DNA of 64,000 bases from an uncultured Planctomycetia bacterium. GTDB taxonomy: Bacteria; Omnitrophota; Gorgyraeia; Duberdicusellales; 4484-171. A program made the position numbers and the translations under genes. The stretch covers positions 134,715 to 198,714 of the forward strand of contig CAZAYU010000003.1 of assembly GCA_964489445.1 (NCBI GenBank), given 5' to 3'. Under the pieces are notes generated by a model that worked only from the letters and a program-made list of their open reading frames with translations, searched no databases and was not told the DNA's origin. The number at the start of each line of letters is the position of its first letter. Positions within the stretch are counted from its first letter, which is position 1. Positions 32,349-64,000 of the stretch are shown here, piece after piece.

Positions 32349-32349
32349 A

Positions 32350-39885: not shown

Positions 39886-39958
39886 AATATTAAATTTTTT
39901 TGGATTTATCTATACAGATGAAGTAATTTAAGGAATGATTTGCCCAAATAATGAACAA

Positions 39959-40503: not shown

Positions 40504-40631
40504 TTGTGCTCCTTTTTTCAGCTGATTACGGCGATTGTGAAAAGATTGCAGCGATTACCTCATTAATCTTCTTACTTGGCAGCTTTTGTTTCCAAAATTA
40601 ATCAATAATCCTACGTTGCAGCCAGTTATTT

Positions 40632-40922
40632 TTAAGTAAGATAAAACCTGCGCTTCAAATATTTTGGCATGTAACCGGTCAAGGCTTTAACTTCCACAAT
40701 TATACTGTTTTCAATTATTAAATCTAATCTTAGAGAACCAACTTTTTGGTTAGCATACTTTATTTTATATTGTTTTTCTGTATTGTAGTTTAATCCTGCT
40801 GAAGTTAAGGCAATTTTTAAAGCATTGTGATAGATCTTTTCACTAAATCCGGGACCTAATTCAGAATGAACTTTATGCGCGCAGCCAATTATTTTCTCAG
40901 TAAGGGGGTCTCTTTTTTCCAT
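40632..40922 (-). CDS. GxxExxY family protein (PD-(D/E)xK-like)
   Basis: 'IIGCAHKVHSELGPGFSEKIYHNAL...IVEVKAL' matches the GxxExxY family signature. Confidence 0.65.
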   Translation of the reverse strand: MEKRDPLTEKIIGCAHKVHSELGPGFSEKIYHNALKIALTSAGLNYNTEKQYKIKYANQKVGSLRLDLIIENSIIVEVKALTGYMPKYLKRRFYLT

Positions 40923-41244: not shown

Positions 41245-41306
41245 AAGTTCGATAAGGGCAATCCTGACTAAGTCAGGTGCGCAAAGCCACGGATCCCAAA
41301 AATAGT
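41245..41306 (+). ncRNA. c-di-GMP-I (GEMM)-like riboswitch aptamer, copy B (tentative)
   Basis: 'AAGGGCAAt-CCTGAC-taa-GTCAGG-tGCGCAAAGCCACGG' parallels the Vc2 aptamer 'CAGGGCAAA-CCAUUC-gaaa-GAGUGG-gACGCAAAGCCUCCGG'. The conserved box is shared with copy A. Confidence 0.5.
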
Positions 41307-41363
41307 GGATAACTGATTTATCATAGTCTGAGGCTACGATAAACCGATATTGCTCAAGGGAAA

Positions 41364-41414
41364 GCCGGGCTGCCGAAACTTTGAAAATAGAGTTTTGACA
41401 GTCCGGTTTTTTTT
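41364..41414 (+). terminator. Intrinsic terminator / expression-platform hairpin upstream of the giant gene
   Basis: 'CCGGGCTG...CAGTCCGG' stem with an internal hairpin, followed by TTTTTTTT. Same stem sequence as the copy A terminator. Confidence 0.55.
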
Positions 41415-41530
41415 AAATAGCCGACAGGACACATTATGAGAAATAAAAAGATGAAAATGAATATATTGGGGAATTTGTGTTATTTATATAGTATATATAC
41501 ATTTAATTTTTTTTTAACTATACAAGATAA

Positions 41531-44500
41531 ATGAGCATAGAACAGAAACATACTGGCGTATTTAATGAAGCTCAAAAGGAAAGGGCAAAGCCTTGGATTA
41601 GAACAATTGCGTTGTTGGTTGTCTTTGCTTTTTTGCATCAGAATATTGTTTTAGGGTTTACCGGAAATAATTTTTTCTTTCAATCTCAAATAATGCCTCA
41701 AGGGCCCAAGGCAGTATTAGATATTTCTTCTTCTTTCTTGCAGGAAGAAGCTCCGGAAGCAGTAAGGAATATCCTTAATGCAGTATCTTCAAATCCTGGA
41801 ATCAGCAAGATTAAATTTCCTTCCGGCAAAATCTTAGATGTTAACAATAAGCTAAATTTAACGCCGCAGGGCATAGATCAAATTTATACGTTACTTAAAG
41901 AGAAACCCTGTGGAACAGAAGCGCTTTATGATTACTTGAGAAATTACGGATTAAGCAATTCGCAGACTGAAGTCGCCAGCATTCTTTTTTCTATTGATGT
42001 TCTAGAAAATTCCGAAAATTTAAGAATAGATCCGCAATCTCTACAAAATTCATTATATAGTCTTGTTCATGGTGCAGAATTTTTTGGGTACCAGCTAACA
42101 CCGATAGAGCTCAAAAAACCCTTTCCGGTGTTTATTCTGCAGGAGTTTACTCCGTTTATCGCCCATTTCAAGATTGGACATTATGTAGTAGTTAGAAAGA
42201 TCGAAGATGGAAAAGTTTTTTGTATTGATAACGGAATGCCGGCGGAATATAGTTTAAAGAAATTTTTACAGGATTTTAGCGGATATGCCGCAGTAGCTAA
42301 TTTTAAACCTTTTAGTTTTGTGAAAAAGGTTTCTTTAGATAAGGCTAAAGTGATTAAAGGTTCGCGTCAAGGAACTAATTTAAGAAATTGGTCGCAGTTA
42401 GCGAATTTAGATAAAATCAGACAGCAGGTTGATGATTTTCGCAGTGATGCTCAAAGTAAAATCTTAAAAAGTATGGCTATCCAAGCGGGGATTTCTGTTG
42501 TTGGCAGTTTTGCTTCCGGATTTATTAAAGGGGCTGCCGGAACAGTTCCTAAAGGGGCAACAGTTGCAACTGATTTAACTACCGGAGGTAACTATCTTGT
42601 AGAGGGAAGTGTTGGAGCGAGAACATTTACAGAAGTAGGTAGTTTTTCACACATGGTAAACTCTGGTTGGACTAATATGGCTAGTTCATTTTCTAGTGTT
42701 GGTAGCGGGATGGTGATGGGTTTGTCCGGATCAGCCTTATGTACCGGAATTTCCGGAATCGGTCGAGCATATGACTGGGATAGAGGCACAACGAGGATAG
42801 TTTCTGCTCTTTCGATGGGCGCACTATACGGTGGGTTACAAGGGTTTTCTGGCGGCGGACAATATGGAATGTTTGGTGCGACTGTGGATGCTGGTTGGAC
42901 CGGAGCCTTAAAAGGAGCTGCAGCCGGAGTAGGATATAATTTAGTAAGAGTTCCGGTGGGTGATTATTTAGCCGAAAGATTTGGTGAAAATTGGGATACA
43001 GTAGGTTATGCGATTGGCGGTATTGCCGGAGATTTAGCGGCTAGCAGCATAATGTCCGGATTAAACGGTGATTTTACTTTAGGCGGTAAAATAGAAGTGG
43101 ACCCAAATAAAGGTTATGGTTTGGGCGATCATTTGTATGGTCAGATAGGCAGTTGGACAGAAGATTTAGTGACTGCGGGAATGCAGGGCTTGGCTAATGA
43201 ACTCGATTTAGGGAATACTTGGGAGGCAATGTTTTCATTTTCCGGCGGCTTTAGCCGAGGGTTAGTGGATAGCCAATTGAATAAGCAAACTAGCTGGCAT
43301 GATGGCTTAATGTCTGGATTAGAAAAGGGTGTCTATTCAATGGGGGTAAGTTACTTTGAAAATTGGATGGAAGATAATATTGGCGGGGCGTTAGGAGATT
43401 GGGTTAAAGACTCAACCATGAATCGGAATATGCTGGCTAATTTAGCTACCGGGACTTTAGCCGGCGGGTTTTATGGTTTAGCCAGCGACAATGATTGGAA
43501 TATTCCGGGGATGACTCAAGAAAACAAGAATTTAGGCTGGTGGAACATTGCGACAATTCCGTTAGATAGTGTTGTAGAAGCCAATCAGGCGATGTTTAGT
43601 TTTGGTAAAAGCCGGTTGGATAGTGGTCAGATAAGTTTTTCTAAATATCTTCAGAATCTTACTGACGTGTTTATTCCCAAATATGACTGGCAAATTAGCC
43701 GGGAAGTGCGCAGCCAACTTAAAAACTACGATTATGATAAAAAGTTAGAACTAGCCAATAATTTCAATCAGAAGGGCTCTCTTTATGAGGGTAAAATATT
43801 TAATTCCGACGGCTCAATTAATAATAAAGCCTTATCTGATGCGTATGGTAATTTTATGGTTGATCAGTCTTTGTATCCGGACATGATGGAGAATTTCCTT
43901 CAGGCGATGGACAGTATGGGCGCTCAGTATCACCACTGGAATGCAGTAGCTAATTTACAGAAGTTTGCCAGTCCTATTGTTCAACAGTCTATAAGCAGCC
44001 TGACTAAGTACAATGCGATGGATGGTAATTTAGGGATAGTAACAAATCAAGCAATAGAAGATCTAAAGGGAAGAGATGTTTTTCAGAGTAGGACTACAGT
44101 CAATGGGCATCAGGGATTTAAATATGAAGAAAGGGAGTACGATGAATACGGTGAATACGAGATGTATATTGAATCTAAGCAAACGAGCAATCCTTACAAA
44201 GAAGGTTCTAACTTAGCAGGAATGCTAGAACGATATAAGGATTTAGATTCCGGGACAGAATCTAAAGACATCCGCTATGAAGATGGATTTGTTTTCTATC
44301 GTTTGGGAGAAGCTTATATTGACGATAAAACTATGGACTTTGTATTCATAAACACAAATCATGAACAAAGAAATTTTAATTTCAATAGTATCGAAAGTTT
44401 CATCGGGCCCGTAGATAAATTGTTAAAAGCAGGGCACTCGGCAAATAGTATTACATCTTTAAAGAGTTTCGGGATTGATTACGTAGCGATTTCTATTTTC

Positions 44501-47500: not shown

Positions 47501-50500
47501 AGCACCAAGAAAAATGGATTAATTTTAGATCGGGCGATACAGGATTCTGACAAACAATATGTCGGAAAAACAGAGATTGATGCCTTATATTTAGGTATGA
47601 AGGGGTATGGAACCGGCGGAACCGATAATTTTGGAATGAAAGCCGATATAAACCGCTCTCAAGTTTGGGGCCGAATTTCCGGTTACAGCAAGCAGAAAAA
47701 ACTAATAAAAGAGGCGGCAACGCCTAAATTAAAGATACACGATAATAATTTAGTGGAAATTAATTTTGGGCTCCAAAAGAGTATTCTTTTTGACCGGGAT
47801 AAAGCAGAATTTCCTGTTTCCCGGTTAAATAGCATTGCCCAGAATTTAGGGATAAAATTAAGCGGATTAGAAACTAAAGACTCACTTATTCGGAAAATTC
47901 AAGGAAAGCTTAAAATTACCGTTGACGGAGTAATCGGGCAAAATACTAAGCAGGCCATTTCCAAGGCTTTATCTTCGGGAAACTCTAATTTTTCCCAGCA
48001 AATTAAGCAGGCTTCTTCTACCGGACGCTCAATTTTAAATTTGGATGCCCAGGATGATCAAGAATATGGGCTATTACTAAAGGATTCCAATTTAACAATG
48101 TTTTTAAATCCGCTGACTGCCAGCGGACAGCCTAATGTCAATTTTGAGGATAAACTTTGTGTTTATGACAATGCGGTTTGGAATATTATTGATGCCGGGC
48201 AGATGGAAAAAAGTAAAGGCGAGATAGTTAAGTTTAAGCCGAGTAACCGTTCAGAATGGACAACAGTCCTTGAAGGGATCAAGCCCGGACATCTTTCTCC
48301 GGATAAGATTAAAAACAGTACTTTTCAGATTGCCAACCGTTTGAGAGCCGGTAAAGGAAAAGTATTTTTTGATGTAAATGGAGGAGTTAGTTTTGGCGCA
48401 GATACTACCTATTCTTTGACTATGGACATCAATAAGCGAAATATTGCTCAAACTCGTCCGTTAGGGATTGTTAATGATGGGTTGCTGGCGTTAATTTTAG
48501 AAGCGGAAGAAATGATTTCGGGAAAAGATTATGATCCGAGTACGCAAAAATGGCTTAAAGGTGCCAGGGAGAAAGGATTGGCTCAATTCAAGAATCAACA
48601 TAAAACTGAAATTTCTCTGCTTTCTGGGAAAATCCAGAATAAAGAAAAAATATCCGCAAAAGAGGCGCAAGCAATAGCTACTCAAGAGATTTTAAAAAGA
48701 GCCGGTGCTTCGCACGAAGACTTAAAAAATTTGGTATATCAGGTAGGAGCGGCTGCGCACACAGGCGATATTGCCGTGGGAAAAACATCCGCAGGAATTA
48801 CCCCACTTTTGGATAAAGAGAATATCAATCCGGCGATAATCAATGGTATAGAATTTTCAGTTATTGACCGGGGTAAGGTTTGGTTAAGCCGTCTTTTTGA
48901 ATCTGACGGTAATCAAGGGATAAAGGCATCGGCTCAACCGGTAGAGATAGCCAGTTTTGATATCGGAGATGTAATAAAGTGGCACGGAACTGAAAAGATT
49001 TCTAAGCAGAGAGTATTTACATTTTCTGCCGGAAAAGATGATGTCTTCCTATCTTTTGCTCAGAAGAAATTTAAACCGGAGCAAACAAAAAAAACCCAAC
49101 CGAGCTTAAAAGTAACTGCTAGATTAAAAGGAGCTAATTCAAAAGATACTACTGGGCAAAAAATTAAAAAACCAAATCCAGCGGCAGATGATGACGGTAT
49201 TTCGTTTGTGCGAGAAGCAAGCGCCTCTATATCTCCTAATGCCGTAAGTACCTCAACTCCTGTTGGTGAACAACAACAGGAAATAGATAATTTAAAAAAT
49301 AAGAAAAAAGTTATTGAGGGTCAACTTGCGTATTTGCAGAGTCAAAAATCTGAGGCACCTATTGATAGATATAATAATCAAGGGCCTTCTTACAAGGAAA
49401 TGAATAACCGGGAAAATGAATTAAAGGCCGAGCGACAAAAGATTCAAACTCAGATAAAAGAATTAGATGCTGCCGAACAACCTGTGGCTGTGGCAGAAGC
49501 GAATCCTTCTGTAAATTCAGCAAACAGCAGTGCAAGTCCATCGTTATCTTCTAAGGCCGAAGCATTACCGGTTGCAAAAACTAAAACAAACAATACAGGA
49601 TTATCTTTGATCTCTCCAGTAGATGCTTCTACGCCAGTTGTTGCAACAGAAACCACAACTTCGGATTTACCAGTAACAGCGAAAGATGATACAGGATTGT
49701 CTTTAATCCCTGCAGCAAGCGCTTCTATTCCTCCTATAGTAAAAGGTGGTGCAAGTAGATCTTTAAATGCAGAGGACAATAAACCAGCACGGCTTTTGCC
49801 GGGAGTAGAAAAATGGCTAGCAAGTGATGGTGTAGTAGAAATTGAAAAGCGCAAAGTAACAATACAGCCAAATAAAGAGAGTGTGTCGGCAACGACGAAT
49901 AAAAAAGGATCAACAATTAGTATGAGCGCTCTAATTAATGATGCCGTTAATGAGCGTCTTGCCATTGGTGATAAAAAAGTAGAAAGTGAAAAACATGAAG
50001 AAGCAGTATCACCAGTTAATACTACAGTTATTTCAACCACAGTTACTCCGGTGTCGGAAGAAGAAGTATATAAAGAAGGATATGTTGGAAGGGCAAAAGG
50101 ATTTATTTCCAGTCTTTTTTCTGGTAGCAATGAATCTCAACCACAAGTAGTAAAAGAACCATACGAAAGTATGCATGATGCGGTTAATAGAGTGATGGAA
50201 GAAGACACAGCAGGATTATCTAAAGAACCACCAGCTTCAGTTGCAATTGAAAAACCAAAATTAGCGGCACCGGTTGTAACAACTAAAACAGATCCGGTGG
50301 ACAACAATGCAGGCTTCTCTTTAGTCCCTCCAGCAGATGCTTCTATTCCTCCTTCTGTAGTTACAGGAGAAGATAGAGTAAACAATAATGGACAAACAAG
50401 GCGCATTGATGATCCGAATAGCTGGAAAAATAGTGGCACAGTAGGAATTAAAAAGCGCGAAGTAACGATAAAACCGAACACAGAGATTACGTCGGCAACG

Positions 50501-56500: not shown

Positions 56501-59500
56501 TTAACAGTATTTAACGGAACCGCTAAAGCTGCCGGCTTAGTGGTTGAAGGGGTAATGAGAACATTCGGAGATTGGGGTGAGGATAATCCGTTATCCGGAA
56601 GAAACGCGAATACTGCGTTGGGCAATATTTTTGGAAGAAGAACAGGTCAGAAAGCTTGGGCGGTAATTCCGCAAAGTATGGCTGAAGGTGCGGTAATGGG
56701 TGCCGGATTCGGCGCTTTAATGGCAGTGGCCCGGCCGGTTTTAGAGCCGGTGATGCATCGGCTACCGGTAATTAGCCGGGCAATGCGGTATTGGGATAGA
56801 AATTATGGCAATACTTTAGTGGGGACTCAAGAATTTAAATGGTTTGGAAGAATGTTTAAAAACCGGTTTATGGCTCGTTTTCAATCATTTTTTGTGGAAG
56901 AACATCTAAAAGAAGAACTAGTAGCCAGCACTCTTTTGCGGAGTGTAAGATTTGGCGGAAATTCTTTAGAGGGCCACGCTTTGAATGAGTTTTTCCAAGA
57001 AACGATTACCGACTTTACCGGAAGATTTACAATTACTCATCTTAGCCGTCAACTTAGTTTTGCGATTGGAGAAAAAGGCGGAAAAGTTATTGGCATTGAG
57101 TCTGAAGCCTGGAGTAAAGACGCCCCGATGTCTAAAACTCAACTTGCAGATGCAATTAATGCCAGCTATGGTCGGGTTAAGCAGCACCAAATTCCGAATA
57201 TTTCTACCGACAAAAAATTACCGGATAATCTTAAATTGGTTATAGAATTTAAAGATGGCAGCCGGCAGAATATCGAAGTGGAAAATAGCCGGGATGTGGG
57301 GGAAGCGCTAAACACCCAACATTTTAAACAGCAATATAGAGGTGAAAGTGTAGATTTTCTTAAAAAAGAGATTGAAACCGGAATAGGAGACCGTTATTCA
57401 TCAAAAGCTCATGCTGCACGGGAAGTTTTGTTGGAGCAAATTGCTGAGAATGACGAAGACCATATTGTAAGACTAGCTAATGGCGAAAATATTACTTTCC
57501 AAACGCAAACAATAGACCCGGTTCTGTTTGATATCGGCAATGCTTTAAGTCTTGTTTTGGCGAAGAATACAAGCGCTTTGCAAAAATTAGAAGCTTTGCA
57601 GAAAAACAGTCTTTCTCCTTGGGCATTTAAGGATTTTGGTTTTTCCGGCTCTAAAGCTAGAGCTGATCAACATCTTCTTTTTAAACGCTTTACTGCACAG
57701 GCTCTTTATACCCAGAGCATTCTTGCTGAAGCTAACGCTTTACGTAATCCTACTCGTTCTAATGAGGAGCTTTATCAAGCATTATTTTCGCAACACCGGC
57801 AGGCTAAAGACGAAAAAGAATATTATGCAACTTATTATAAGACTTTAGAGAAAGAGGGTAAAGATTATTGGCGGGGTAATGCGTTTACCCGCTTAGGGTT
57901 GCTTGGTGTCGGCTTAAAAGGATATAAAGATGAGTATAATTATATTCATGTAATCCAGCCTGAAAAAATCAAACAAGCTAACGAAGCGCTTCTTTCCGAT
58001 GTTAGTTTGTATGCTAAAAAAGAAATCGAGCTTAAAAGGCAACTCCGGTCTTTAGATAATCAAAATAAATTAAATAAGGAACAACGTAAAGAAAAAATAG
58101 AAATAGAGCGGAAAATTAAAGCTTTGGAATGGATACAAATAGATTTTAATCTTGATTCAAGCCTTACCGGAGAAATGGAAGTATCCAGACAAGCGGTTAT
58201 GAAAGAAATAAAAGATGAAAAAACCCGGCTTTCTGAAACATTTCAAGTATTTACTTCTACCGGACGCGTGCGCGATTTTGTAAAACAAGGATTTAAAGAA
58301 TTTAAGCGAAACGAAGGTGGCCCGCTTAAAGTAATTAAAGCGTTCAGAGTCGCTTATAACAATTACTATAAAGCTCTTGATCCGCTTAAGGTTGTTCAAC
58401 AAGCCTATAGCCGCAGCAAAAAGCATCAATTTTTGTTTAGCGGCAGAGATAGTGAATTCTTGAATCAGGAATTAGATGGATTTTTGGGTAATGAAGCTTT
58501 AGGCTTATTGAGAAACGTGAATACTCAAGAGGATTTAAGCCTTAATGATATTTATCAACCGAAATTATTTGGCGAGTTTGATCTTTTTTACAACCGGTTA
58601 ATTAATCAGCTCACGGATAAAATCTCTGATTATGAAAAGGAAATAGCGGATAATTCTAGCGATTATCAACTTCTTGCTCGGCGAGATAAGCTTGAAGATA
58701 TAAAAACTCGTCTGGATAAAATTGATACTAAACATATTGCTTCGGTTTATGATTTTGCCGCTGTTTTGGATGATGCGCTTATGCCGGTTACCGATAAGGA
58801 TATTCGTACTCATGCTAAGGCGCTTAGAATGGTTGCTCAGGAAAGGGACAACAGAATTAACGATAGAGAGTGGTTAGATAGCCGTCTTAAAGAAGAAATA
58901 CAGACGGTTAATGAGCTAAGAAAGGGTATCGAGAAATTAACGGCGAAAGAGATTAAAGCCCAAAATAAGTTAAGCTCTGGTTCAGAATTTAGAGAACTAG
59001 TCATTGAAATGGAAAGCAAAGGAAAGAATGCAGATGAGAAAGAAGCAATGGAGATAAATATAAATTCAATGAGCAGTGAGAAGTTTTTTGAATTAGCTAA
59101 AAAAATGTATCTCGAAAACGATGCTTCTGAAATAGCCAAAGCTAATGCAAAATTATGGGAGAAGAGAGCAAGCAATCTAGTGATATCAATTCGGGAAACT
59201 CATGATGGGTCAGCTAAAATTATCAGAGAGTCAAGCGGCCAGTATACCTTAATAATGCCGCATAGCCGGGTTGAAGAAAATTTAAGATCAAATGGATCAT
59301 CTTCGTTTAGCCTGAACGATACCGGAATATATGAGTTAGAACATGAATTAGGCCATCGCTATCAATATGGATTAGGAGTAACGATGCAGGAAAGCGGTAC
59401 GATGAATAAAACACCGCAAGATGAAGTTTTGGCTTTAACGCGTGATGTGGCTAATTTAAGTAAGAATATCAAAAATAATAGCAATTACCGCAAAACTACT

Positions 59501-62500
59501 TTTGTAAATATGATCGGCGCAATAACCGGGACTAATTATCTTGGTGATCGCCTAATGGAGTTTATTCCTTTAGAAGAACAGGAAAAAATTGCCCAGCGAA
59601 TAGAAAAAGATATCTTAAATATTAAAAAGATTAGATTATCTAATCTTTCTACCTGGAGGGTGCCTTACGTTAAGCTTCCTTGGTTTAAGCAAAGCGCTTT
59701 AGAATGGGGAACTAAATCCGGAATAAGCGGCAGAATAGAGCGCGTTTTGCGCAGCAATGACGGTAAATTACCTTCATTTGCGATGCAGTCATCAGACCCT
59801 CATTCTTTATTTTTACCGGTTCAAAGTAATGAGCAACAGGATTATATTTTAGAGGATGACCGCCGGTTTAAAGAAAAAATGATTGAAGAAATTGTATTTA
59901 TTCGTCCCAAAGAAGATATTAAGAAGATTCTAAAAATGGCTAAAGATAACGGCATTAGGATAAAAACAAAATATTCGCTTAATAAGTATATCCGTAAAGC
60001 TGCTTCATTGGGAATTCTGGGTGGTGAGGCGATTGGTGCTTTTAATAATGAGCGGCTGGAAAATGGAAAAGGAATTGTTTATTTGCCCTGGGGATGGAAA
60101 GATAATCCTTTTGAAAGCCGGGCAATATTGGCCCATGAAGTTGCCGAGCATGCTTTGGGCGATAAGAATTCAGAAAATGTTATGCACGATTTTGTTAATT
60201 TGATTGATGCGGTTGAACAATTAGAAAGGGTAGACAATAAATTAAAAGACACGCTTGAAAAGGCAAGAAATTATCATCGTACAGGTTATGATAATTTAGG
60301 CAAAAATCTTGCTAAGCAGGCTGAGGAAAATGAATTGGCAGATGAACAAGGAAAAATTAGCGGTGAAAATCTGAAAAAATTACGAACATTAATCGATGGA
60401 GTTATTCTCCGTTTAGAAAATGAGAATGTCGATTATTTTCAAAATCCAGAAGCGGCTATTCAAAAGCTGAAAGAACTAAAGGAAAAAGAAAGTGTTAGTT
60501 TGAATGAATTAAAAATCTTACAAATAACAGCATCTGATTATTATGTGGCTACGGAAATTTTTGCACATTACGCTAGTGAACAATATGGATATCAGAGTAA
60601 TAAACGGGTGCGTGCATTTATTGATCGGGTGCAAGGGCATCCCGAAATTCAATCAATGCTGGATGACCGGTTGAGTCGGTTAGATATTTCACCTTCCCGC
60701 AGAATGCACAGCAAGCAAAAAGAAATAGCCCTGATAATTGGATCCGACACCAGTTTAGCCAAGAAAAAAGGTTATGCTTCTTCTTATGCTGGAGACTCAG
60801 GCGGTGAAGCAGATGAAGAAGAGATAGGGCAGCAAGAACTTATTGATGAACTTAGAAGAATGATAGAGGAATCCAAAGTAATACCTGAAGGAAACGAAGC
60901 ATCTGCATCATCAGGTATTAGCAATTCGGAAGCAGAGAATTTACAAGCTTATAAGAAGACTTCTAATTCAGGTAATTTTAATAAAGTACTTCCAGCACAG
61001 AAACAGGATGAACGTTCCTCCAGTTCAATTGATTCCAATAAAGTCGCTATAGAAAAAATGATTAAGAAACAGAATAGCATGCACGACCAGAAGCAAGAGA
61101 TAGATAACTTTCTTTTTGGTTCGCAAGCTGGCTTCAGCGCTAAGGAAGTGAAAACTAATGAAGATAATGCAAATTCGCGTTTATTATCTAAAGGAGCAGA
61201 TTCTCTCTTTGGTTCATTGTCTATCGGTAGTAATGGTACAGAAGCTGGTGATAAAGGGCCAAGCAAGAAAGAGAATGTTTTAAAGGAGGTATTAAGTAAC
61301 TTAGATATTGCTGATGAGTCCAGTGCTGCACCTAACGTTTTAAATAATGGTTCGGATATGAAATTATTAAGAGCCAATGATGTCGTTCGGTTATCGGGAA
61401 AAGGATTTGAATATTTAGTTGAGACAGATAAAACAACTGGGTTTAAACTCCGGTTTAATAGAGGCGAACGTCCGGAAATAGAGAATATTTCTTTTGATGC
61501 TGCAGTCCAGCTTCCATTGAAGATAAAGCAAGGAGAAATGGCTGTATTTAAACTTACTCCGGAAGAAGCCAAATTATTTATGAATGGTAATTTTTATACC
61601 AACGAACTAAGTACTTGCACAGGAGTATCATTAAAAGGAAAATACAACGATTACTCTGTATTAGGAATAGCGCATATTCCTCAAGGGCAAATATCAGATG
61701 ACCCGCTATTACCACAAAAAGTATTCGAGTCAGTTATCGATAAATCCATTGATATCGGATTAACCGATATCAATATAGGAGTCTATTATTTTAGCGGTGG
61801 TGAATCAAAAACGCCGTTTCCTTCTCAGGAAGGATTAAAACAGAAATACTCCGAAGTTAAGGAGATAGAGGTATTTGACGGATATGTTCCGGGTAAAGGC
61901 GGATTAAAGCCAGTTGGAATGTCTTTTTCTGATTCAAACAACAAAGAATTTAAAGCTAGCAATGGAGGAGCAGGTGGCAACAACGGTTCTTCTTCGATAT
62001 CATCTGGCAGAAAAGGTTCGACCGTAGCTTCTAGTTCAATTCCGATTGAAGAAGATTCGGCTCAGAGGCTGCCGTTTGACAACAGCCCGTTTAATTCTAA
62101 TGCAAATGGTCAGATGCCTTGGATACCGGCGTCTAGTTCACCGGTTAATCCAATTGGGGTTAATCCGATGTCATCGGGTTCGTCTTTAATCTTTGGAAAA
62201 GTAATTAAAGGAGTAAGAAATGCCGCAGAAGAGTTTTTCTGTTCTTCTGCCTTGGCAGCTTCACCAATTGAGCAGGCAGCACTAAAGGGCGCTTCATCGA
62301 GTGCTTATAAAGCATCAACCGGTGCTTCCGGTAAAAATGCCGGGCCTAGCAATATGGTCAGCTCTGCCATGTCTTCAGGCAGAATTGACCAGTCGAAAGA
62401 AGACAAAATAGATAAACTGTTTAATAAAATTGCAAGATTTACTGGAAATTTAAGAAATTTTGCAGAAAGTTTCCCCGAGTTCTTTAAGAAATTGAGTGAA

Positions 62501-64000
62501 AATCTCAGATCTGTAATCGGGAAAGGTGCGCTTGCAAAAAACAACGCGCCGACGAATAAAAGAGCTGTACCTGGAACCGGAATAGATGTATCAGGAGAAG
62601 ACAGAGAATTAAGCTCATTGTCCGTTAATAATATAAATAACGGCAAAGATTTATCAAATAAGCCAGAAGGGCTTAGAGAACGTATTCATCAATTATCTAG
62701 TGGGTTGAAAGAAACCCTCAATTCTTGTGCTCCGCCTTTAGAAAAAGGCGAAAATTCTATTTTACTGTCTTCAGCAATCATTAATACTTCTTCTAGCTCT
62801 ATAGTCAATAATGATAAATCTGGATCAGTTGACCCTTTACTAGGCAAAGAAACCGTGCCTTCTAATAATTTACAAACGGAACAATTGCGAGGCATAACTA
62901 AAAAACTCAACAAGGGTATTCATTATATGCAGGCACGAATCTTTAGTTTAGAACGTTGGGCTCTTAGCACTGAACCGGACAAATATGAGATGGAAGAGAT
63001 AACGAAACTTATGAGTAATGATAAGTATGAGTTTGATCCGGCTAAAGAAGTAGTTTTAGCGCGCAGGGACTATTATGGAGCAATGGCAGTTACCAAGCAA
63101 AGATTAGAAGAAGAAATTAAGAAAATAAAAAGCGGAACAATATCCATTGAGGAACCGGTAAATTTAAAATTATTAATTAACAGCTGTGCCAAGTTTATTA
63201 TTTCCAGGGATAACTTAAAAAATATCGAGTTAGATGGGAAAGAAGAATTAGAAATTGCGGTAAACAAAGCTGTGTCTCTTTCGGCAAAAATTATAGCCGT
63301 TACCGAAGGGATAAAATTTTCAGTGAAGGAAAAAAGTGAGGGAGAAGATATTGAAGCTTCAAAGTTGTTACAAGAGGTACTTAGACGACTTGGTGGTTTA
63401 GAGAAAGAAGTCAAGAATACCAAAGCAATAGCAGAAGATACTAATAAGAGAATGGAAGATACCAGCAGGGAAGTAGAAAAACGAACAAAAAGAACTGAGA
63501 TAAAATTGGATATTGCGAATAAAAATATGAGTGAAATGAATAGGGAAGTAGAAGAACGAACAAGAAAAACTGAGATAAAATTGGATATTGCGAATAAAAA
63601 TATGAGTGAAATGAATAGGGAAGTAGAAGAACGAACAAGAAAAACTGAGATAAAAGTGGATATTGCGAATAAAAATATGAGTGAAATGCGGACTAAACAG
63701 CAGGAAAGTTTTGAAAATTGCTTAGAGGGAAGCTTGATAAGATTGGGTTTTGATAAAATCGCCGATAAAATAAAAAAGGCTAGAAAATTCGGCGCAAAGA
63801 TTAATATGTTAAAAATTGTCAGAATTTCTCGGAGAGCATTAAAAACATTTAGCTTTTCCAAAGAAAACTTGATTAAGTTAAGTGAAAATAATCCCGGCCT
63901 TTTAAATAAGCTGATCTTTATTGAACAGCAATCCGAAGGCATTCATCATGCTTTTAGTGTGAATAATGTCGATGAGCAGGGTGTTTGGGTTTTAAGCGAG
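41531..64000 (+). CDS. Giant protein, N-terminal 7490 aa. The ORF is open to the window end (3' partial). It has an N-terminal TM anchor, a C39/papain-like cysteine peptidase-like domain, Gly-rich regions, large tandem repeats, an HELGH zinc-peptidase-like motif and long coiled-coil regions
   Basis: No stop codon in frame from the ATG at 41531 (preceded by an in-frame TAA at 41528-41530) to nt 64000. Checked by hand translation; the frame is consistent at checkpoints (Cys codon 41909, HELGH at 59339-59353, last codon 63998-64000). No plus-strand ORFs are listed in the track for this 22.5 kb, and the track lists only closed ORFs. TM 'WIRTIALLVVFAFLHQNIVLGF'. 'KPCGTEALYDYLRNYG...IGHYVVV...CIDNG' resembles the peptidase C39 Cys/His arrangement. 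Confidence 0.8.
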   Translation, partial: MSIEQKHTGVFNEAQKERAKPWIRTIALLVVFAFLHQNIVLGFTGNNFFFQSQIMPQGPKAVLDISSSFLQEEAPEAVRNILNAVSSNPGISKIKFPSGKILDVNNKLNLTPQGIDQIYTLLKEKPCGTEALYDYLRNYGLSNSQTEVASILFSIDVLENSENLRIDPQSLQNSLYSLVHGAEFFGYQLTPIELKKPFPVFILQEFTPFIAHFKIGHYVVVRKIEDGKVFCIDNGMPAEYSLKKFLQDFSGYAAVANFKPFSFVKKVSLDKAKVIKGSRQGTNLRNWSQLANLDKIRQQVDDFRSDAQSKILKSMAIQAGISVVGSFASGFIKGAAGTVPKGATVATDLTTGGNYLVEGSVGARTFTEVGSFSHMVNSGWTNMASSFSSVGSGMVMGLSGSALCTGISGIGRAYDWDRGTTRIVSALSMGALYGGLQGFSGGGQYGMFGATVDAGWTGALKGAAAGVGYNLVRVPVGDYLAERFGENWDTVGYAIGGIAGDLAASSIMSGLNGDFTLGGKIEVDPNKGYGLGDHLYGQIGSWTEDLVTAGMQGLANELDLGNTWEAMFSFSGGFSRGLVDSQLNKQTSWHDGLMSGLEKGVYSMGVSYFENWMEDNIGGALGDWVKDSTMNRNMLANLATGTLAGGFYGLASDNDWNIPGMTQENKNLGWWNIATIPLDSVVEANQAMFSFGKSRLDSGQISFSKYLQNLTDVFIPKYDWQISREVRSQLKNYDYDKKLELANNFNQKGSLYEGKIFNSDGSINNKALSDAYGNFMVDQSLYPDMMENFLQAMDSMGAQYHHWNAVANLQKFASPIVQQSISSLTKYNAMDGNLGIVTNQAIEDLKGRDVFQSRTTVNGHQGFKYEEREYDEYGEYEMYIESKQTSNPYKEGSNLAGMLERYKDLDSGTESKDIRYEDGFVFYRLGEAYIDDKTMDFVFINTNHEQRNFNFNSIESFIGPVDKLLKAGHSANSITSLKSFGIDYVAISIFSNLKSATKFYGMKDVDWWFDEIMAVGEKKLGEYHYGNNSIKGNFWQTADQKGKLISFLSADAKMYDGANNQIGHALAGVARAGMPQLILFNQEKYNLSLSSSSNGLSRQIPVQGLMHVAEINNDLSVQKGSFISFDVNSVKQKDGKIKNELNPAIPSDFLSRLSNKDLGIESLKINEFGRHDWGNTFYTEGRYQLKYADKDVQITPRYTGFGEVGDTIKIGDKEIKFPVSTAYEVRVEYNKGITFKDIDRGKKQIDIFSIDSDNTDIAASVAARYSAPWISEVLNIKKAEPVFRPLAPNVDIKVFTSSEESGENIAENFSLVKSGFGLDGVNINGNIKKRLSGVLTGARDLVPEKVDASFYGNELKLDEQAKTKLPSQNYHPYAFKSENSPITVGNHLIRYADARSSWDMSVDNSGNFSSNVKLRIGGKVVVNNRIKSLSTQNRRIEALQGTDKVWAVYNSGLFPDMAGVINVGKGETINMVTSPKIPTFNNPKEKEALTEVPKDLLGNQIKILKPDNKPAANQYELIQERFDNNKDIMNVLNEGTHGSLRGVSRDERSAVNEFGDGAYVFYTDSSGVSGYTYNSIFDIQGDRPAYPHNYYFGYKDARVITRQGSSRVEFLPKFQNAVKSAYQKNKNTWKPAVYWQMVQDESTILNNNNIKLSGQKEEVKIPVSLVHQGALLHIDGRLAAVKKDFYQLPTALAEKSEDKQFYGDTAQGLFISGWTPQSVLKDVLNVKSQHKSSEQTGKNDIVKLKQTEKQLRTDANMISFSSETDKQKIEMALQNFSRQHFSGDVHAVIEGSVDTSQGNVVNLSTSYLLLGSFNNKERELVIRNQKPESSHLIPFQAGVPKGLKATFTPEKYENDVLNKTLTYSGKGNLPFAVFQSTPQGFAGGFFKVGRFGEVTEELLVPSQGLEALSINTSDLKKLPAYYSNVLSRAKAADNNAIAKGVLPLAVSFGAKDRVSVVLGMINGKKPGETFAVLYRGQWGGDNNLYGVGFVSTKKNGLILDRAIQDSDKQYVGKTEIDALYLGMKGYGTGGTDNFGMKADINRSQVWGRISGYSKQKKLIKEAATPKLKIHDNNLVEINFGLQKSILFDRDKAEFPVSRLNSIAQNLGIKLSGLETKDSLIRKIQGKLKITVDGVIGQNTKQAISKALSSGNSNFSQQIKQASSTGRSILNLDAQDDQEYGLLLKDSNLTMFLNPLTASGQPNVNFEDKLCVYDNAVWNIIDAGQMEKSKGEIVKFKPSNRSEWTTVLEGIKPGHLSPDKIKNSTFQIANRLRAGKGKVFFDVNGGVSFGADTTYSLTMDINKRNIAQTRPLGIVNDGLLALILEAEEMISGKDYDPSTQKWLKGAREKGLAQFKNQHKTEISLLSGKIQNKEKISAKEAQAIATQEILKRAGASHEDLKNLVYQVGAAAHTGDIAVGKTSAGITPLLDKENINPAIINGIEFSVIDRGKVWLSRLFESDGNQGIKASAQPVEIASFDIGDVIKWHGTEKISKQRVFTFSAGKDDVFLSFAQKKFKPEQTKKTQPSLKVTARLKGANSKDTTGQKIKKPNPAADDDGISFVREASASISPNAVSTSTPVGEQQQEIDNLKNKKKVIEGQLAYLQSQKSEAPIDRYNNQGPSYKEMNNRENELKAERQKIQTQIKELDAAEQPVAVAEANPSVNSANSSASPSLSSKAEALPVAKTKTNNTGLSLISPVDASTPVVATETTTSDLPVTAKDDTGLSLIPAASASIPPIVKGGASRSLNAEDNKPARLLPGVEKWLASDGVVEIEKRKVTIQPNKESVSATTNKKGSTISMSALINDAVNERLAIGDKKVESEKHEEAVSPVNTTVISTTVTPVSEEEVYKEGYVGRAKGFISSLFSGSNESQPQVVKEPYESMHDAVNRVMEEDTAGLSKEPPASVAIEKPKLAAPVVTTKTDPVDNNAGFSLVPPADASIPPSVVTGEDRVNNNGQTRRIDDPNSWKNSGTVGIKKREVTIKPNTEITSATDSNNKGSIINMSALIEDAVDEAIGDKKVEIEKHEEAVITVRTTITSTTVTPVSGEGYVERAKGFISSLFSGSNESQPQAIKKKYESIHDAVDRVMKEGDTAGLSKEPLALVAIEKPKSASLGAKTETYPAEKNTGFSLVSTVDASIPPSAVTGEDRVSNNGQTRRIDQDRWENSGTVEIKKREVIIQSNNKSTPATDSSPRESTFNFSAELDEAIKNIPNRSSNSFGQYKSTEPVVGKNNDEKVNQVVGESIEKTGIKSAPLSHIEIDHGAVRTLEGVSGSYELGGVKEGSLSSFVLFVNNGELAGAEWAYKIFPTLQGVNFNLPGQEKIAANSNSKPKFYNSGQSVNMQTANVQGVRIFNNVYANTGALEDGKYNLKKAFKLVVLPKERVEVGLSIQHLPEVLKAFAAGQINSSPRINNNVVVTYHVNSAGKQGEVNYGKVLGKVKDNQFTIYGNVGDLLSGTEQTLDDLLKRSGINGLDSSSQTALKGKDIEYEVINQAPYELESITAGGRKISRKTDKEFFEETISRKLGAGERVGNVLIDGLVQGILGGMVGLLLSPLADSTNRVVYRPSLLGDEAWGTTKRTWSWINKQLDFGLMGITGKEDLGKLAEMGFTPKRIELGKNSVPDEEQKKFVNNYHIKGIAAETLSGGVIEVMSEVKTPAEQSNISSRVEKEGGKEKASSNRQIKTTTANTNNKETTITHFIDNSWHLGRGEYSFNIEENQSGGFDIGSLNWESLGEIKVKAFGGHPFSELSGYSPKTEVLAIPTLGGFKNYIGEKTSVSLSFKGSIALISGVEGYRQFQAITTRGENQGWDALVSSNGQCALLNKGKIEAYVPDIEQVGTVVVVGKGKRFKITDTSGLFGRLDNTLGVVGNSVWGFLRLPMDVGSDLLYSPFRLLGLAKGEAFEFTKNGALASSETASKQFISIFTGKGLEKIKAGKDNSSKSREFNIVKKDGAYLIARKISENEAITFVVSPTKDLEVYTINKNRTLGEKTLDMTNPEEVQDYFKNYMGDKYIEGMGQRTEKNAETPTIAKAQKQAREHVIYITENGVIKEKTTLLNYLEKNTGQPFEQSLAGIGKLLSTRLTGKKVEFSDPAVKALIGYAILGKLVINPSLTAIPWVKINQGLITINADCAGSAFLFEQGIVKLIPEAVKQTVGNYLDVVTVPGHVFSGFYLDPALKGSKGYADFNKEEKKQIITFELARRDLPLVSNMASLEANEVYDAKKITLGFHPAFSSRKGGKGAGEENLLSPSADTNGLFPAIRVLYNNLAIESGRLGNQAAARQYLYLSGLNVNENDNIVLTANGLALNRGGDSVYLPALGGPEGGQIRVALGKDGKPEYYYQKGIEGLNVFSGESVVFTDNNGMVRKHSVVSNLAFPGEFGKKYGEFYKIISFDGKESSYIQKKEGESLQLNDEMLGTIIKEINKTHTIVVNPEVGLTAGLNNSDKLLTSIVVPNEILNEKVKGKARNQTGREIMDDLSVGQSSGDSGMSFIGKYWEKTKNGAHEICNRIGETSLYRMYFGESNEEEASRLVDSGEAINTYTGNRWIDNIFDYNGNNIYIIKDGKMAVIDGMNALMLGALLEKNNPQEYGIVNAALIRRDGMTNLEIGTDIVLLALTAIPLARIGIAGIKAGGGALLKVGFSKVGFGSVEKGFLESRLVGVIENTVSKKITNLLSEVSKGMTSVSLDGGKRKLAETVAANLPGGVSPARMISRNTLAAMGRSSLEHIVAPALSANVNLIGINMMMNVANGNDFFQGITLHSTMRTALVGIGFAGLIPSRNPALGIRSFQGYAKEVMMRQFIRVGSKKFSFKGYNGGIQGIGWAGQGVLRGAEQVFGISSDIREQFWTPLHIAATLWALSPTAAKDSMTAKGFLKDHIWDSMKSRKAYYFAGVPAGYLGLKYIQSKDYDLGMINFIKNDWMPELALMFAGLGGLKHIGSLKDGARSAGKKALETLRNPQAAVARGVAQVKNFRNSFSYSFFARKQLLQMGSVAQVLTVFNGTAKAAGLVVEGVMRTFGDWGEDNPLSGRNANTALGNIFGRRTGQKAWAVIPQSMAEGAVMGAGFGALMAVARPVLEPVMHRLPVISRAMRYWDRNYGNTLVGTQEFKWFGRMFKNRFMARFQSFFVEEHLKEELVASTLLRSVRFGGNSLEGHALNEFFQETITDFTGRFTITHLSRQLSFAIGEKGGKVIGIESEAWSKDAPMSKTQLADAINASYGRVKQHQIPNISTDKKLPDNLKLVIEFKDGSRQNIEVENSRDVGEALNTQHFKQQYRGESVDFLKKEIETGIGDRYSSKAHAAREVLLEQIAENDEDHIVRLANGENITFQTQTIDPVLFDIGNALSLVLAKNTSALQKLEALQKNSLSPWAFKDFGFSGSKARADQHLLFKRFTAQALYTQSILAEANALRNPTRSNEELYQALFSQHRQAKDEKEYYATYYKTLEKEGKDYWRGNAFTRLGLLGVGLKGYKDEYNYIHVIQPEKIKQANEALLSDVSLYAKKEIELKRQLRSLDNQNKLNKEQRKEKIEIERKIKALEWIQIDFNLDSSLTGEMEVSRQAVMKEIKDEKTRLSETFQVFTSTGRVRDFVKQGFKEFKRNEGGPLKVIKAFRVAYNNYYKALDPLKVVQQAYSRSKKHQFLFSGRDSEFLNQELDGFLGNEALGLLRNVNTQEDLSLNDIYQPKLFGEFDLFYNRLINQLTDKISDYEKEIADNSSDYQLLARRDKLEDIKTRLDKIDTKHIASVYDFAAVLDDALMPVTDKDIRTHAKALRMVAQERDNRINDREWLDSRLKEEIQTVNELRKGIEKLTAKEIKAQNKLSSGSEFRELVIEMESKGKNADEKEAMEININSMSSEKFFELAKKMYLENDASEIAKANAKLWEKRASNLVISIRETHDGSAKIIRESSGQYTLIMPHSRVEENLRSNGSSSFSLNDTGIYELEHELGHRYQYGLGVTMQESGTMNKTPQDEVLALTRDVANLSKNIKNNSNYRKTTFVNMIGAITGTNYLGDRLMEFIPLEEQEKIAQRIEKDILNIKKIRLSNLSTWRVPYVKLPWFKQSALEWGTKSGISGRIERVLRSNDGKLPSFAMQSSDPHSLFLPVQSNEQQDYILEDDRRFKEKMIEEIVFIRPKEDIKKILKMAKDNGIRIKTKYSLNKYIRKAASLGILGGEAIGAFNNERLENGKGIVYLPWGWKDNPFESRAILAHEVAEHALGDKNSENVMHDFVNLIDAVEQLERVDNKLKDTLEKARNYHRTGYDNLGKNLAKQAEENELADEQGKISGENLKKLRTLIDGVILRLENENVDYFQNPEAAIQKLKELKEKESVSLNELKILQITASDYYVATEIFAHYASEQYGYQSNKRVRAFIDRVQGHPEIQSMLDDRLSRLDISPSRRMHSKQKEIALIIGSDTSLAKKKGYASSYAGDSGGEADEEEIGQQELIDELRRMIEESKVIPEGNEASASSGISNSEAENLQAYKKTSNSGNFNKVLPAQKQDERSSSSIDSNKVAIEKMIKKQNSMHDQKQEIDNFLFGSQAGFSAKEVKTNEDNANSRLLSKGADSLFGSLSIGSNGTEAGDKGPSKKENVLKEVLSNLDIADESSAAPNVLNNGSDMKLLRANDVVRLSGKGFEYLVETDKTTGFKLRFNRGERPEIENISFDAAVQLPLKIKQGEMAVFKLTPEEAKLFMNGNFYTNELSTCTGVSLKGKYNDYSVLGIAHIPQGQISDDPLLPQKVFESVIDKSIDIGLTDINIGVYYFSGGESKTPFPSQEGLKQKYSEVKEIEVFDGYVPGKGGLKPVGMSFSDSNNKEFKASNGGAGGNNGSSSISSGRKGSTVASSSIPIEEDSAQRLPFDNSPFNSNANGQMPWIPASSSPVNPIGVNPMSSGSSLIFGKVIKGVRNAAEEFFCSSALAASPIEQAALKGASSSAYKASTGASGKNAGPSNMVSSAMSSGRIDQSKEDKIDKLFNKIARFTGNLRNFAESFPEFFKKLSENLRSVIGKGALAKNNAPTNKRAVPGTGIDVSGEDRELSSLSVNNINNGKDLSNKPEGLRERIHQLSSGLKETLNSCAPPLEKGENSILLSSAIINTSSSSIVNNDKSGSVDPLLGKETVPSNNLQTEQLRGITKKLNKGIHYMQARIFSLERWALSTEPDKYEMEEITKLMSNDKYEFDPAKEVVLARRDYYGAMAVTKQRLEEEIKKIKSGTISIEEPVNLKLLINSCAKFIISRDNLKNIELDGKEELEIAVNKAVSLSAKIIAVTEGIKFSVKEKSEGEDIEASKLLQEVLRRLGGLEKEVKNTKAIAEDTNKRMEDTSREVEKRTKRTEIKLDIANKNMSEMNREVEERTRKTEIKLDIANKNMSEMNREVEERTRKTEIKVDIANKNMSEMRTKQQESFENCLEGSLIRLGFDKIADKIKKARKFGAKINMLKIVRISRRALKTFSFSKENLIKLSENNPGLLNKLIFIEQQSEGIHHAFSVNNVDEQGVWVLSE
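49560..51100 (+). repeat. In-frame tandem repeats of ~588 bp (~196 aa), ~2.6 copies, within the giant gene
   Basis: E.g. 50082-50260 vs 50669-50850 are ~90% identical; the protein repeats read 'GLSLIPAASASIPP...' / 'AGFSLVPPADASIPPSVVTGEDRV...' / 'TGFSLVSTVDASIPPSAVTGEDRV...'. They generate the spurious antisense ORFs 49450-50997. Confidence 0.85.
63467..63691 (+). repeat. 75-bp (25-aa) in-frame tandem repeat x3 within the giant gene
   Basis: 'REVEERTRKTEIKLDIANKNMSEMN' x3 (63467-63541, 63542-63616, 63617-63691), nearly identical at the DNA level. Confidence 0.85.

Follow-up and report, generated by a model that had tools for sequence, protein, structure and literature searches.

The giant gene and its leader

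The subject of this report is a giant protein-coding gene, together with the riboswitch in its leader, on the plus strand of a 64,000-nucleotide (nt) stretch of DNA (contig CAZAYU010000003.1; hereafter the window). An open reading frame (ORF) starts with the ATG at 41531 and is still open at the window end, base 64000, after 7490 codons and at least 22.4 kb with no stop. Only the 5' portion of the gene is visible; its stop lies beyond the window, and 7490 codons is a lower bound. Ahead of the ATG stands an aptamer of the type that senses cyclic diguanosine monophosphate (c-di-GMP), and further upstream a Tad/Flp-type pilus-secretion cluster. The leader and the N-terminal region, with amino acids (aa) numbered from the giant-gene ATG, contain these features:

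41247..41378, plus strand: c-di-GMP-I riboswitch aptamer within the giant-gene 5' leader (47.2 bits on RF01051; gathering score 35)
41357..41414, plus strand: predicted intrinsic terminator (minimum free energy fold); its 5' arm is the aptamer 3' strand (AGCCGGGCUGCC), its 3' arm GACAGUCCGG at 41397-41406, followed by U8 at 41407-41414
41436..41534, plus strand: 32-codon upstream ORF (MRNKKMKMNILGNLCYLYSIYTFNFFLTIQDK), from translation of the leader
41531..64000, plus strand: 5' part of the giant ORF (no stops, codon-position composition, independent contigs to 50118)
41573..41656, plus strand: conserved N-terminal export signal, aa 15-42 (hydropathy and conservation in 102 relatives)
41858..42298, plus strand: C39-like cysteine peptidase domain, aa ~110-256 (PF03412 and PDB profile matches)
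41909-41911, 42179-42181 and 42227-42229, plus strand: predicted catalytic residues Cys127, His217 and Asp233

Because the frame holds no stop in 7490 codons and keeps a uniform codon-position guanine-plus-cytosine (GC) content (GC1 0.46-0.50 > GC2 > GC3, the same in all 3-kb blocks), it is a single coding frame and not a product of chance. At the window's base composition, a stop-free run of this length has P~1e-250; the other five frames across 41531-64000 contain 250-857 stops each, and a TAA stop at 41528 lies directly 5' of the ATG. What is visible is one genuine giant gene, represented by a 5' part of at least 22.4 kb. A preliminary description of this DNA had proposed an open-ended ORF of >7490 aa and >22.4 kb, which is borne out, and had attributed the empty plus-strand ORF track to a frame that never closes; no plus-strand ORF of at least 100 aa is listed after 39065, and open-ended ORFs are indeed excluded from that listing.

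When the whole window was scanned with Rfam at gathering thresholds, the one match, to RF01051, spanned model positions 1-87 of 87 and ended 152 nt 5' of the giant-gene ATG. The aptamer keeps the conserved core and has a ~70-nt insertion in one loop. In 18 of 20 short related loci, Rfam likewise placed an aptamer from this clan shortly before the giant gene. These 18 plus the window copy, 19 aptamers in all, were used to construct a covariance model, R1, on which the window aptamer scores 65.1 bits. Applied to 74 sources totaling 1.06 Mb (the window, locus L007, and 72 loci from GTDB genomes that encode the same protein head, described below), R1 found 67 matches, every one on the giant-gene strand; 61 of the 72 loci carry a copy before the giant gene. 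The aptamer 3' end lies 74-211 nt from the first ATG (median 168) in 55 loci; six more distant aptamers precede another secreted-protein gene that abuts the giant ORF, and still stand at the head of the transcription unit. Of the eleven loci lacking an aptamer, five have less than 450 nt of upstream DNA. The intervening gene in the six loci mentioned (L013, L019, L022, L040, L046 and L058) encodes a secreted protein, 371-2378 aa long, whose signal peptide is preceded by an N-terminal GGKGG motif, and the gene ends at the start of the giant ORF, giving a two-gene operon.

Across 66 distinct aptamer sequences, in an alignment that was fitted to the model and should be read with that in mind, 97.3% of paired positions can pair, vs. 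85% in shuffles and 27-51% with partners slid, while compensatory double-change cells number 160, over 11 pairs, where 43 are expected, with none of 500 shuffles reaching 160. At the columns that we map to ligand contacts G20, A47 and C92 of the Vc2 crystal structures, G is found in 62 of 67 copies, A in all 67 and C in 65; the window copy has G, A and C. Most copies score best on RF03167 (c-di-GMP-I-GGC) rather than on RF01051, and 14 of the 18 matches among the 20 relatives pass the RF03167 gathering score of 59, below which the window copy falls at 48.8 bits. The G that defines the c-di-GMP-I-GGC variant is absent from the copies. Because the variant position is A in 67/67 copies, and the contact positions show the G and C just described, the aptamers are predicted to be canonical c-di-GMP-type binding sites.

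A close parallel is Bc2, a c-di-GMP-I RNA upstream of a collagen adhesion protein gene in Bacillus thuringiensis (PMC4933901). The two share the RF01051 aptamer family, a position in the 5' leader on the same strand, a large surface or attachment gene as the downstream target, and a terminator-based platform. They differ in host phylum, in the nature of the target (here a C39-headed giant gene), in the long loop insertions of some copies, and in that most copies described here score best on RF03167 yet lack its defining G.

Expression platform

The predicted terminator duplex of the window has an energy of -19.1 kcal/mol, vs. -7.4 when shuffled. A run of U residues follows the aptamer by 8-65 nt in 63/63 leaders. 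In 56 of these the segment before the run (consensus UUUGACA[A/G]YYCGG) is complementary to the aptamer 3' strand (AGCCGGGYUGCC), with a mean duplex energy across leaders of -16.2 kcal/mol vs. -8.8 in shuffled controls. The two strands co-vary: UUGCC occurs with GACAA, CUGCC with GACAG, and UUACC with GAUAA. Because the 5' arm of the terminator is the aptamer's own 3' strand, aptamer and terminator are predicted to be mutually exclusive; mutual exclusion of this kind is the standard design of an ON switch. The leader, judged from its folding, probably acts as a c-di-GMP ON switch. Without ligand, the aptamer 3' strand would pair with GACAGUCCGG to form the terminator ahead of U8; with c-di-GMP bound, the strand would be locked in the aptamer, and RNA polymerase would read into the giant gene.

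Three further observations concern the leaders. The TGA of the upstream ORF overlaps the giant-gene ATG (ATGA), which could mean translational coupling or nothing. A GGGG-N(1-4)-GGG string, typically UUGGGGUAAGGGG, occurs in 38 of the 42 leaders of at least 120 nt (shuffled expectation 0.15), and lies ~42-59 nt 5' of the ATG, mostly 48-49 nt, in leaders L008-L079. A TAGGTAA sequence, probably the ribosome-binding site, is seen 8-12 nt before the ATG in many relatives.

The conserved head and the published gene class

The giant protein begins with a basic n-region and a hydrophobic helix, aa 25-43, with a Kyte-Doolittle hydropathy of 1.97. Residues W22, R24, A27, F34, P36, Q38 and A42 of the signal segment are 90-100% conserved in 102 relatives, and in 100 of the 102 the segment ends with A/S40-x-A42, which fits a signal peptidase I site; the window protein has V40-L41-G42 there. 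The preliminary description had called this one N-terminal transmembrane (TM) helix and a membrane anchor. The helix stands, while the A/S-x-A of the family speaks against the anchoring role; a cleavable, family-specific signal peptide is more likely.

After ~65 additional conserved residues comes the C39-like domain. Pfam model PF03412 (Peptidase_C39) scores 25.1 bits on a 4000-aa piece and 28.6 bits on a 290-aa piece, against a cutoff of 22, and is the sole Pfam domain above its curated cutoff in the visible 7490 aa; an NCBIfam scan of the visible protein gave no matches. A profile of 24 family sequences, compared with PDB, retrieved the C39 domains of LahT (6mpz, E 1.6e-6), ComA and PCAT1. 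The C39 assignment is supported, in that the family Cys and His align with the catalytic residues of these domains and 24/24 relatives individually match PF03412 (best E 7e-14). C127, H217 and D156 are invariant in 102/102 relatives, while D233, present in the window 16 residues after His217, is found in 80 of 102 (78%). The preliminary description had inferred a C39 or papain-like domain from a Cys at nt 41909 and a His at nt 42179, and had recommended HMMER/Pfam profiling of the region; both coordinates are right, and the profiles agree with its reading. A single-sequence AlphaFold2 model of the C39 region had a predicted local distance difference test (pLDDT) score of 47 and was unusable.

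Like the C39 domains of ComA, LahT and PCAT1 (PDB 3k8u, 6mpz and 4ry2), the head has a papain-like profile, aligned Cys, His and Asp residues, and a His-to-Asp spacing of 16. Unlike these enzymes, the giant protein has no fused ABC transporter, none being found by Pfam in the visible ORF, and its C39 domain follows an export signal and is thus probably extracytoplasmic, not cytoplasmic. It departs from classical C39 also in the replacement of the oxyanion Gln by Trp or Leu, and in the conserved residues that precede the domain. A compact conserved head, consisting of an export signal and a C39 domain with invariant Cys and His, could be expressed and tested alone.

When aa 1-1200 were compared exhaustively with 1.84 billion representative proteins by HMMER, 152 protein clusters were obtained, sharing only the region aa ~16-280, nearly always at their own N-termini. 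Members are often very long, to 7335 aa, and are probably cut by contig ends. Word-indexed homologue searches gave one match for aa 1-1000 and none for the head alone or for an alignment of the distal blocks. A pattern scan with a six-sequence head alignment, over one genome per GTDB species, identified the 72 loci used above, nearly all titled Candidatus Omnitrophota/Omnitrophica; the remainder are third-party bins labelled Planctomycetales and one 2.8-kb contig labelled Ignavibacteriae. The bacterium represented in the window is very probably a member of Candidatus Omnitrophota, an indirect assignment by way of the distribution of the head module. The head-initiated ORF reaches the end of the retrieved DNA without a stop in 69 of the 72 loci, for as many as ~3650 codons. 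Of the 39 loci for which 9 kb or more of upstream sequence is available, 33 have TadB/TadC homologues upstream on the same strand, a median of 2.1 kb away.

Genes of this kind have been described. West-Roberts et al. 2023 (bioRxiv 10.1101/2023.11.21.568195) reported Omnitrophota giants whose N-terminal C39 domain lies close to a signal peptide and whose genes follow a secretion locus of over ten genes (gspD/E/F, rcpC, Rotamase_2 and small class III-signal genes), with PilZ genes after the giants and GGDEF domains within them. They proposed roles in prey attachment and cell-wall degradation, and proposed cleavage at points stated to be not known. The window shares with those giants a very long ORF, an N-terminal C39 domain beside the signal and an otherwise largely unannotatable N-terminal region, and with their loci a cluster holding a secretin, an ATPase, two gspF/TadB-C genes, rcpC, Rotamase_2 and small class III-signal genes. 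The published giants exceed 30,000 aa and carry many TM helices, SecA_DEAD and enzyme domains, whereas 7490 aa of a window-truncated protein are visible here.

Nielsen & Lui 2026 (bioRxiv 10.64898/2026.06.07.730766) described architecture clusters of Omnitrophota long proteins, the largest of which is defined by PF03412 and has 24 proteins. Of 14 giants, 13 had flanking type II secretion system (T2SS), type IV pilus or Tad genes, with genes for transposases and toxin-antitoxin systems close by, and 46% of their catalogued long proteins were predicted to be TM-only. The window protein resembles their PF03412-only proteins in having Peptidase_C39 as its sole Pfam domain, and in its Tad/T2SS, mobile-element and toxin-antitoxin flanks; their catalogue starts at 10,000 aa, while the window protein is known only to at least 7490 aa. 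The giant ORF is a new, divergent member of the gene class described since 2023. The earlier statement that proteins of this size are rare was overstated, since they form a recurrent, published class; its suggestion of a surface or cell-interaction machine in predatory or host-associated bacteria agrees with the published accounts.

The Tad/Flp cluster and a second aptamer

Upstream of the giant gene, on the same strand, lie the following:

23001..39065, plus strand: Tad/Flp-type pilus-secretion cluster (Pfam scans and ORF translations)
25852-27465 and 27468-29639, plus strand: Tad secretin with C-terminal TonB_C, and TadZ (ParA-like)-TadA fusion of 723 aa
29833..29989, plus strand: second, divergent c-di-GMP-I-like aptamer, 31 nt 5' of the first Flp-type pilin ORF (30020) (R1, 37.7 bits, E 6e-7)

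The cluster encodes two SurA-like Rotamase_2 proteins, RcpC/CpaB, the secretin, the TadZ-TadA fusion, TadB and TadC, as well as about eight small Flp/class III-signal ORFs and four unannotated ORFs. Several of the small ORFs have [G/A]QSxxEY motifs; their matches to Flp_Fap and Class_IIIsignal are sub-threshold. Compared with the Tad/Flp systems of Aggregatibacter and Caulobacter, the set of RcpC/CpaB, secretin, TadZ, TadA, TadB, TadC and G/A-xxxx-EY prepilins is the same. The differences are the fusion of TadZ to TadA, the TonB_C domain on the secretin, the lack of TadV in the window, the coupling to a giant gene, and the riboswitch-like element before the pilins. No prepilin peptidase (TadV, Peptidase_A24) was found by Pfam among the window ORFs scanned, and one may lie elsewhere in the genome. 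The C39 head was considered as a replacement for TadV and rejected: prepilin leaders are cut on the membrane's cytoplasmic side, the head is predicted to lie outside, and the pilins have no double-glycine sites.

The second aptamer scores 32.6 bits on RF03167, below the Rfam gathering scores, and keeps the conserved core with long loop insertions. Similar aptamers precede Flp pilin genes in loci L040 (860-948) and L051 (216-358). Because pilin-associated aptamers occur in the window, L040 and L051, co-control of the pilus and the giant protein by the same signal is suggested. The preliminary description had missed both the riboswitch and the Tad cluster.

Body of the giant protein

Beyond the head the visible protein extends for ~7200 aa, a body with no match in Pfam or PDB. 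Its features, all on the plus strand, are these:

42491..43630, plus strand: Gly/Trp/Ser-rich segment, aa 321-700 (composition)
47912..48004, plus strand: possible peptidoglycan-binding-type motif, aa 2128-2158, ...VDGVIGQNTKQA... (weak profile matches)
49628..51145, plus strand: ~200-aa unit repeated ~2.5 times, aa 2700-3205, 57-68% identity (self-BLAST of chunks)
55349..56755, plus strand: hydrophobic Gly/Ala-rich middle region, aa 4607-5075 (hydropathy and composition shift)
56585..58120, plus strand: conserved body block 1, aa 5019-5530 (matching aa 3788-4297 of relative P0064 at 29% identity, E 2e-41)
58775..60565, plus strand: conserved body block 2, aa 5749-6345, with HELGH and HEVAEH (26% identity, E 3e-29, to P0064)
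63467..63688, plus strand: 75-nt tandem repeat, three copies (25 aa x 3), within the ORF (Tandem Repeats Finder, 97% matches)

The segment aa 321-700 is 18% Gly, vs. 8% elsewhere, with 12 Trp residues where ~3 are expected and three GW pairs where 0.2 are expected, as the preliminary description had noticed for nt ~42500-43500; a few relatives align as far as aa ~500-580. That description had also seen several kilobases of repetitive and coiled-coil sequence. Repeats in the visible 7490 aa are limited to the ~200-aa unit and the 25-aa tandem, and by a crude heptad proxy there are 106 coiled-coil-like residues against a shuffle mean of 93, no excess. The peptidoglycan-binding motif is suggestive only: PG_binding_3 matches at E 0.095, below its cutoff, and the best PDB match is the peptidoglycan-binding domain of SleB, at E 0.47.

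The body has a three-part layout of composition. Two strong internal hydrophobic helices lie at aa 3531 and 4607, the latter being the strongest (hydropathy 2.18). The part proximal to the middle region is Cys-poor and rich in Gly, Asn, Ser and Thr, and the whole visible 7490 aa contain 12 Cys. From the proximal to the distal side of the middle region, the share of charged residues increases (23% to 29.5%), that of Gly drops (9.5% to 6.3%), and Trp is halved. The same layout is seen in P0064, the one long relative with body homology (6639 aa, bearing the same head). Within block 1, aa 5043-5142 are also present in loci L010 and L034.

Block 2 holds the one HExxH motif of the 7490 aa, HELGH at aa 5938 (nt 59342-59356), where 0.07 are expected by chance, and a second motif, HEVAEH, at nt 60134-60151. 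The preliminary description had called HELGH zinc-peptidase-like. The motif is where it was reported, but the function does not follow from it, and a reading of HELGH as a zinc metallopeptidase was rejected for want of profile support: Pfam, NCBIfam and PDB gave no match for this part of the window protein, for the distal 2852 aa of P0064, or for a profile of the two sequences. That an active zinc metallopeptidase domain lies here nonetheless is quite improbable. In its favor are the location of both motifs in blocks shared with P0064, the chance probability of two HEx(2-3)H motifs (P~0.01), and a conserved ATE[I/F] ~140 aa after the second site. P0064 has HETMGH (aa 4737) at the HELGH site and HEGIH (aa 4987) at the HEVAEH site, so that both sites retain His-Glu and a later His while the spacing is swapped between homologues, a change that a zincin helix should not tolerate. 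This comparison rests on a single homologue, and a single-sequence AlphaFold2 model of the HE..H block (pLDDT 35) was unusable. As a separate observation, the window protein and P0064 each have exactly one canonical HExxH, at different sites. TALE-repeat matches of the two-sequence profile were dismissed as noise, being sums of sub-significant repeats.

A Ser-rich string, [AS]SS[PAS][LIVA], occurs in the giant protein at aa 6496, 6833, 6868, 6921 and 7087 (nt ~61016-62803). It is enriched in the window protein (5 vs. 0.6 expected, all beyond aa 6400) and in P0064 (10 vs. 0.5), as well as in the very large gene at the start of the window (6 vs. 0.1), where it flanks a duplicated module. Other long Omnitrophota ORFs, with 188,000 aa covered from their N-terminal parts, show no enrichment of the string (18 vs. 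11.6). The strings are a candidate module boundary or processing site. As separators, they suggest where such proteins might be divided for structure prediction by segments; West-Roberts et al. stated that cut points of this kind were lacking.

Proposed mode of action and alternative explanations

The whole is best explained, and we think with good probability, by a giant gene of the published Omnitrophota class, lying 3' of a Tad/type II-like cluster, with an export signal and a C39 head, and gated by a riboswitch. Once the switch is on, the conserved N-terminal signal would carry the N-terminus across the inner membrane, leaving the C39-like head, with Cys127, His217 and Asp233 intact, in an extracytoplasmic position to cleave either its own giant protein or a partner. 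An exposed arm may be formed by the proximal ~4600 aa, which are Cys-poor and rich in Gly, Asn and Ser; the hydrophobic middle region (aa ~4600-5080) may re-engage the membrane, and the more charged distal part may consist of modular enzyme-like blocks separated by the Ser-rich strings. The second aptamer, before the Flp pilin genes, would probably place the pilus and the giant protein under the same signal. According to the literature on this class, the product would serve attachment to, or attack on, host or prey cells.

Several observations weigh against this explanation. The window aptamer, with its 70-nt insertion, is among the lowest-scoring of the giant-gene copies, and the leader has only UUGGGGAAU, without the TAGGTAA and the GGGG motif of its relatives. 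The signal departs from the family consensus at H36, N38, G42 and G45, and position 121, where the oxyanion-hole Gln would stand six residues before the catalytic Cys, holds Trp in 93% of the relatives and Leu in the window protein. Pfam and hydropathy found no SecA_DEAD, glycosyltransferases or many TM helices in the visible 7490 aa, only 3-4 strong helices; these missing features do not exclude membership in the class, as the rest of the gene lies outside the window. The closest head-module identity to GTDB genomes, 34-37%, counts against the taxonomic placement. Beyond nt 50118, support from another assembly was not found. The true stop was not found when the last 500 aa were used for a protein-pattern scan of GTDB genomes, nor in JGI metagenomes by an exact 59-nt search and a protein-pattern scan.

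The last points bear on whether the frame could be an assembly artefact, that is, a chimera, mis-join or collapsed repeat instead of one gene, which we consider extremely unlikely. It is true that all public short-read contigs break within the giant gene, that exact-protein matches to TadC, the PDDEXK_3 gene and EF-G led only to contigs breaking before or inside it, and that the longest independent contig (L081) stops at nt 50118, inside the ~200-aa repeat zone, with nothing past that point corroborated. Repeat zones are typical break points of short-read assemblies. Independent ENA, JGI and Logan contigs are, however, 100% identical to the window over nt 28205-50118, which covers the first 8.6 kb of the gene; the blocks at aa 5019-6345 are collinear with P0064; 69 of 72 relatives are likewise open for more than 10 kb; and a chimera would very rarely remain in frame, let alone keep one codon-position GC signature through 7490 stop-free codons. 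Distinctly unlikely, too, is the proposal that the upstream RNA senses another ligand, as an orphan GGC-type variant or a c-AMP-GMP sensor, or that it is an OFF switch. The preference of most copies for RF03167, an orphan variant, argues for another ligand, but the A at the variant-defining position in every copy, with the G and C of the canonical c-di-GMP set, argues the other way. In favor of an OFF switch, the ON logic comes only from folding predictions; against it is the sharing of one strand by aptamer and terminator in 56/63 leaders, with covariation, which makes the two structures mutually exclusive.

Two further alternatives concern the product. The giant ORF may encode a polyprotein that is cut by the C39 head or by another protease, with [AS]SS[PAS][LIVA] marking the cut sites or their linkers. 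The conserved catalytic Cys, His and Asp, the enrichment of the motif in three proteins, its position around the duplicated module of the neighboring gene, and the cleavage proposed by West-Roberts et al. (10.1101/2023.11.21.568195) are all in keeping with such a scheme. We nevertheless consider it unlikely: the motif is not enriched in the other long Omnitrophota ORFs, Ser-rich linkers are common and need no cleavage, and, if the head is outside the membrane and the distal modules are inside, the two would never meet. Known C39 enzymes, moreover, cut after Gly-Gly-type motifs, not Ser-rich strings. A comparably doubtful reading is a membrane-anchored, mostly cytoplasmic giant with an uncleaved N-terminal helix, corresponding to the TM-only class of Nielsen & Lui. 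The V-L-G of the window in place of the family A-x-A would fit an uncleaved helix, nearly half (46%) of the catalogued Omnitrophota long proteins are predicted TM-only, and Sec export of more than 4000 aa is unproven. Opposed to it are the basic residues that come before the helix, by the positive-inside rule, the conservation of A42 (100/102 relatives, A/S at -3), the fit to export of a protein with 12 Cys in 7490 aa and a proximal part rich in Gly, Asn, Ser and Thr, and the placement of C39 beside predicted signal peptides by West-Roberts et al. (10.1101/2023.11.21.568195).

Implications

The giant gene by itself is one more divergent member of a class known from two preprints. The riboswitch is the most useful result, as it makes the control of a giant gene experimentally testable. 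We found no earlier report of a link between the two. The word riboswitch appears in neither giant-gene preprint, and c-di-GMP and PilZ are not mentioned by Nielsen & Lui; full-text literature on Omnitrophota or Omnitrophica with "riboswitch" gave only an unrelated paper, though the paper that defined the GGC variant might mention the association. The link fits, by analogy, with c-di-GMP riboswitches found before adhesin genes, and with the PilZ genes after giants and the GGDEF domains within them, which had stood unexplained.

To our knowledge, it has not been explained why, or at what time, Omnitrophota produce proteins tens of thousands of residues long. It seems to us evenly balanced whether, across Omnitrophota, C39-headed giants and adjacent Flp pilin genes constitute a c-di-GMP riboswitch ON regulon, of which we found no description, that triggers both together. 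If they do, a rise in c-di-GMP would be the point at which the bacterium commits to attaching to, or attacking, a host cell. To this proposal may be added, with less weight, that the distal Ser-rich strings mark processing or module boundaries. The riboswitch may also serve as a marker for the true 5' ends of giant-gene operons in fragmented metagenomes.

Other genes in the window

The remaining features of the window are as follows:

1..8141, plus strand: second very large gene, ending at 8141 (a complete 5094-aa ORF in other assemblies)
22301-22876, minus strand: PIN_5 ribonuclease gene after the Mla operon (Pfam)
39142..40922, minus strand: insert between TadC and the riboswitch, with an IS200-like Y1 transposase, a ParE-like/MazE pair and PDDEXK_3 (Pfam)

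Housekeeping genes and an Mla transporter precede the Tad cluster on the same strand. The minus-strand genes of the window are all of mobile or toxin-antitoxin type. An exact 62-bp tandem duplication (39060-39121 and 39122-39183) occupies the interval from the TadC stop to where the Y1 transposase gene has its 3' end. It is polymorphic, with one copy in five contigs and two, as in the window, in two others, and it alters the called transposase product from 221 to 247 aa.

The visible 2712 aa of the 5094-aa gene include C-terminal TPR repeats, an HETFH motif, and a duplicated module of ~310 aa (aa 644-950 and 1140-1451) with a sub-threshold match to AceK kinase. In this gene (ORF 6..8141) the [AS]SS[PAS][LIVA] string is found at aa 643, 1130, 1456, 2013 and 2627.

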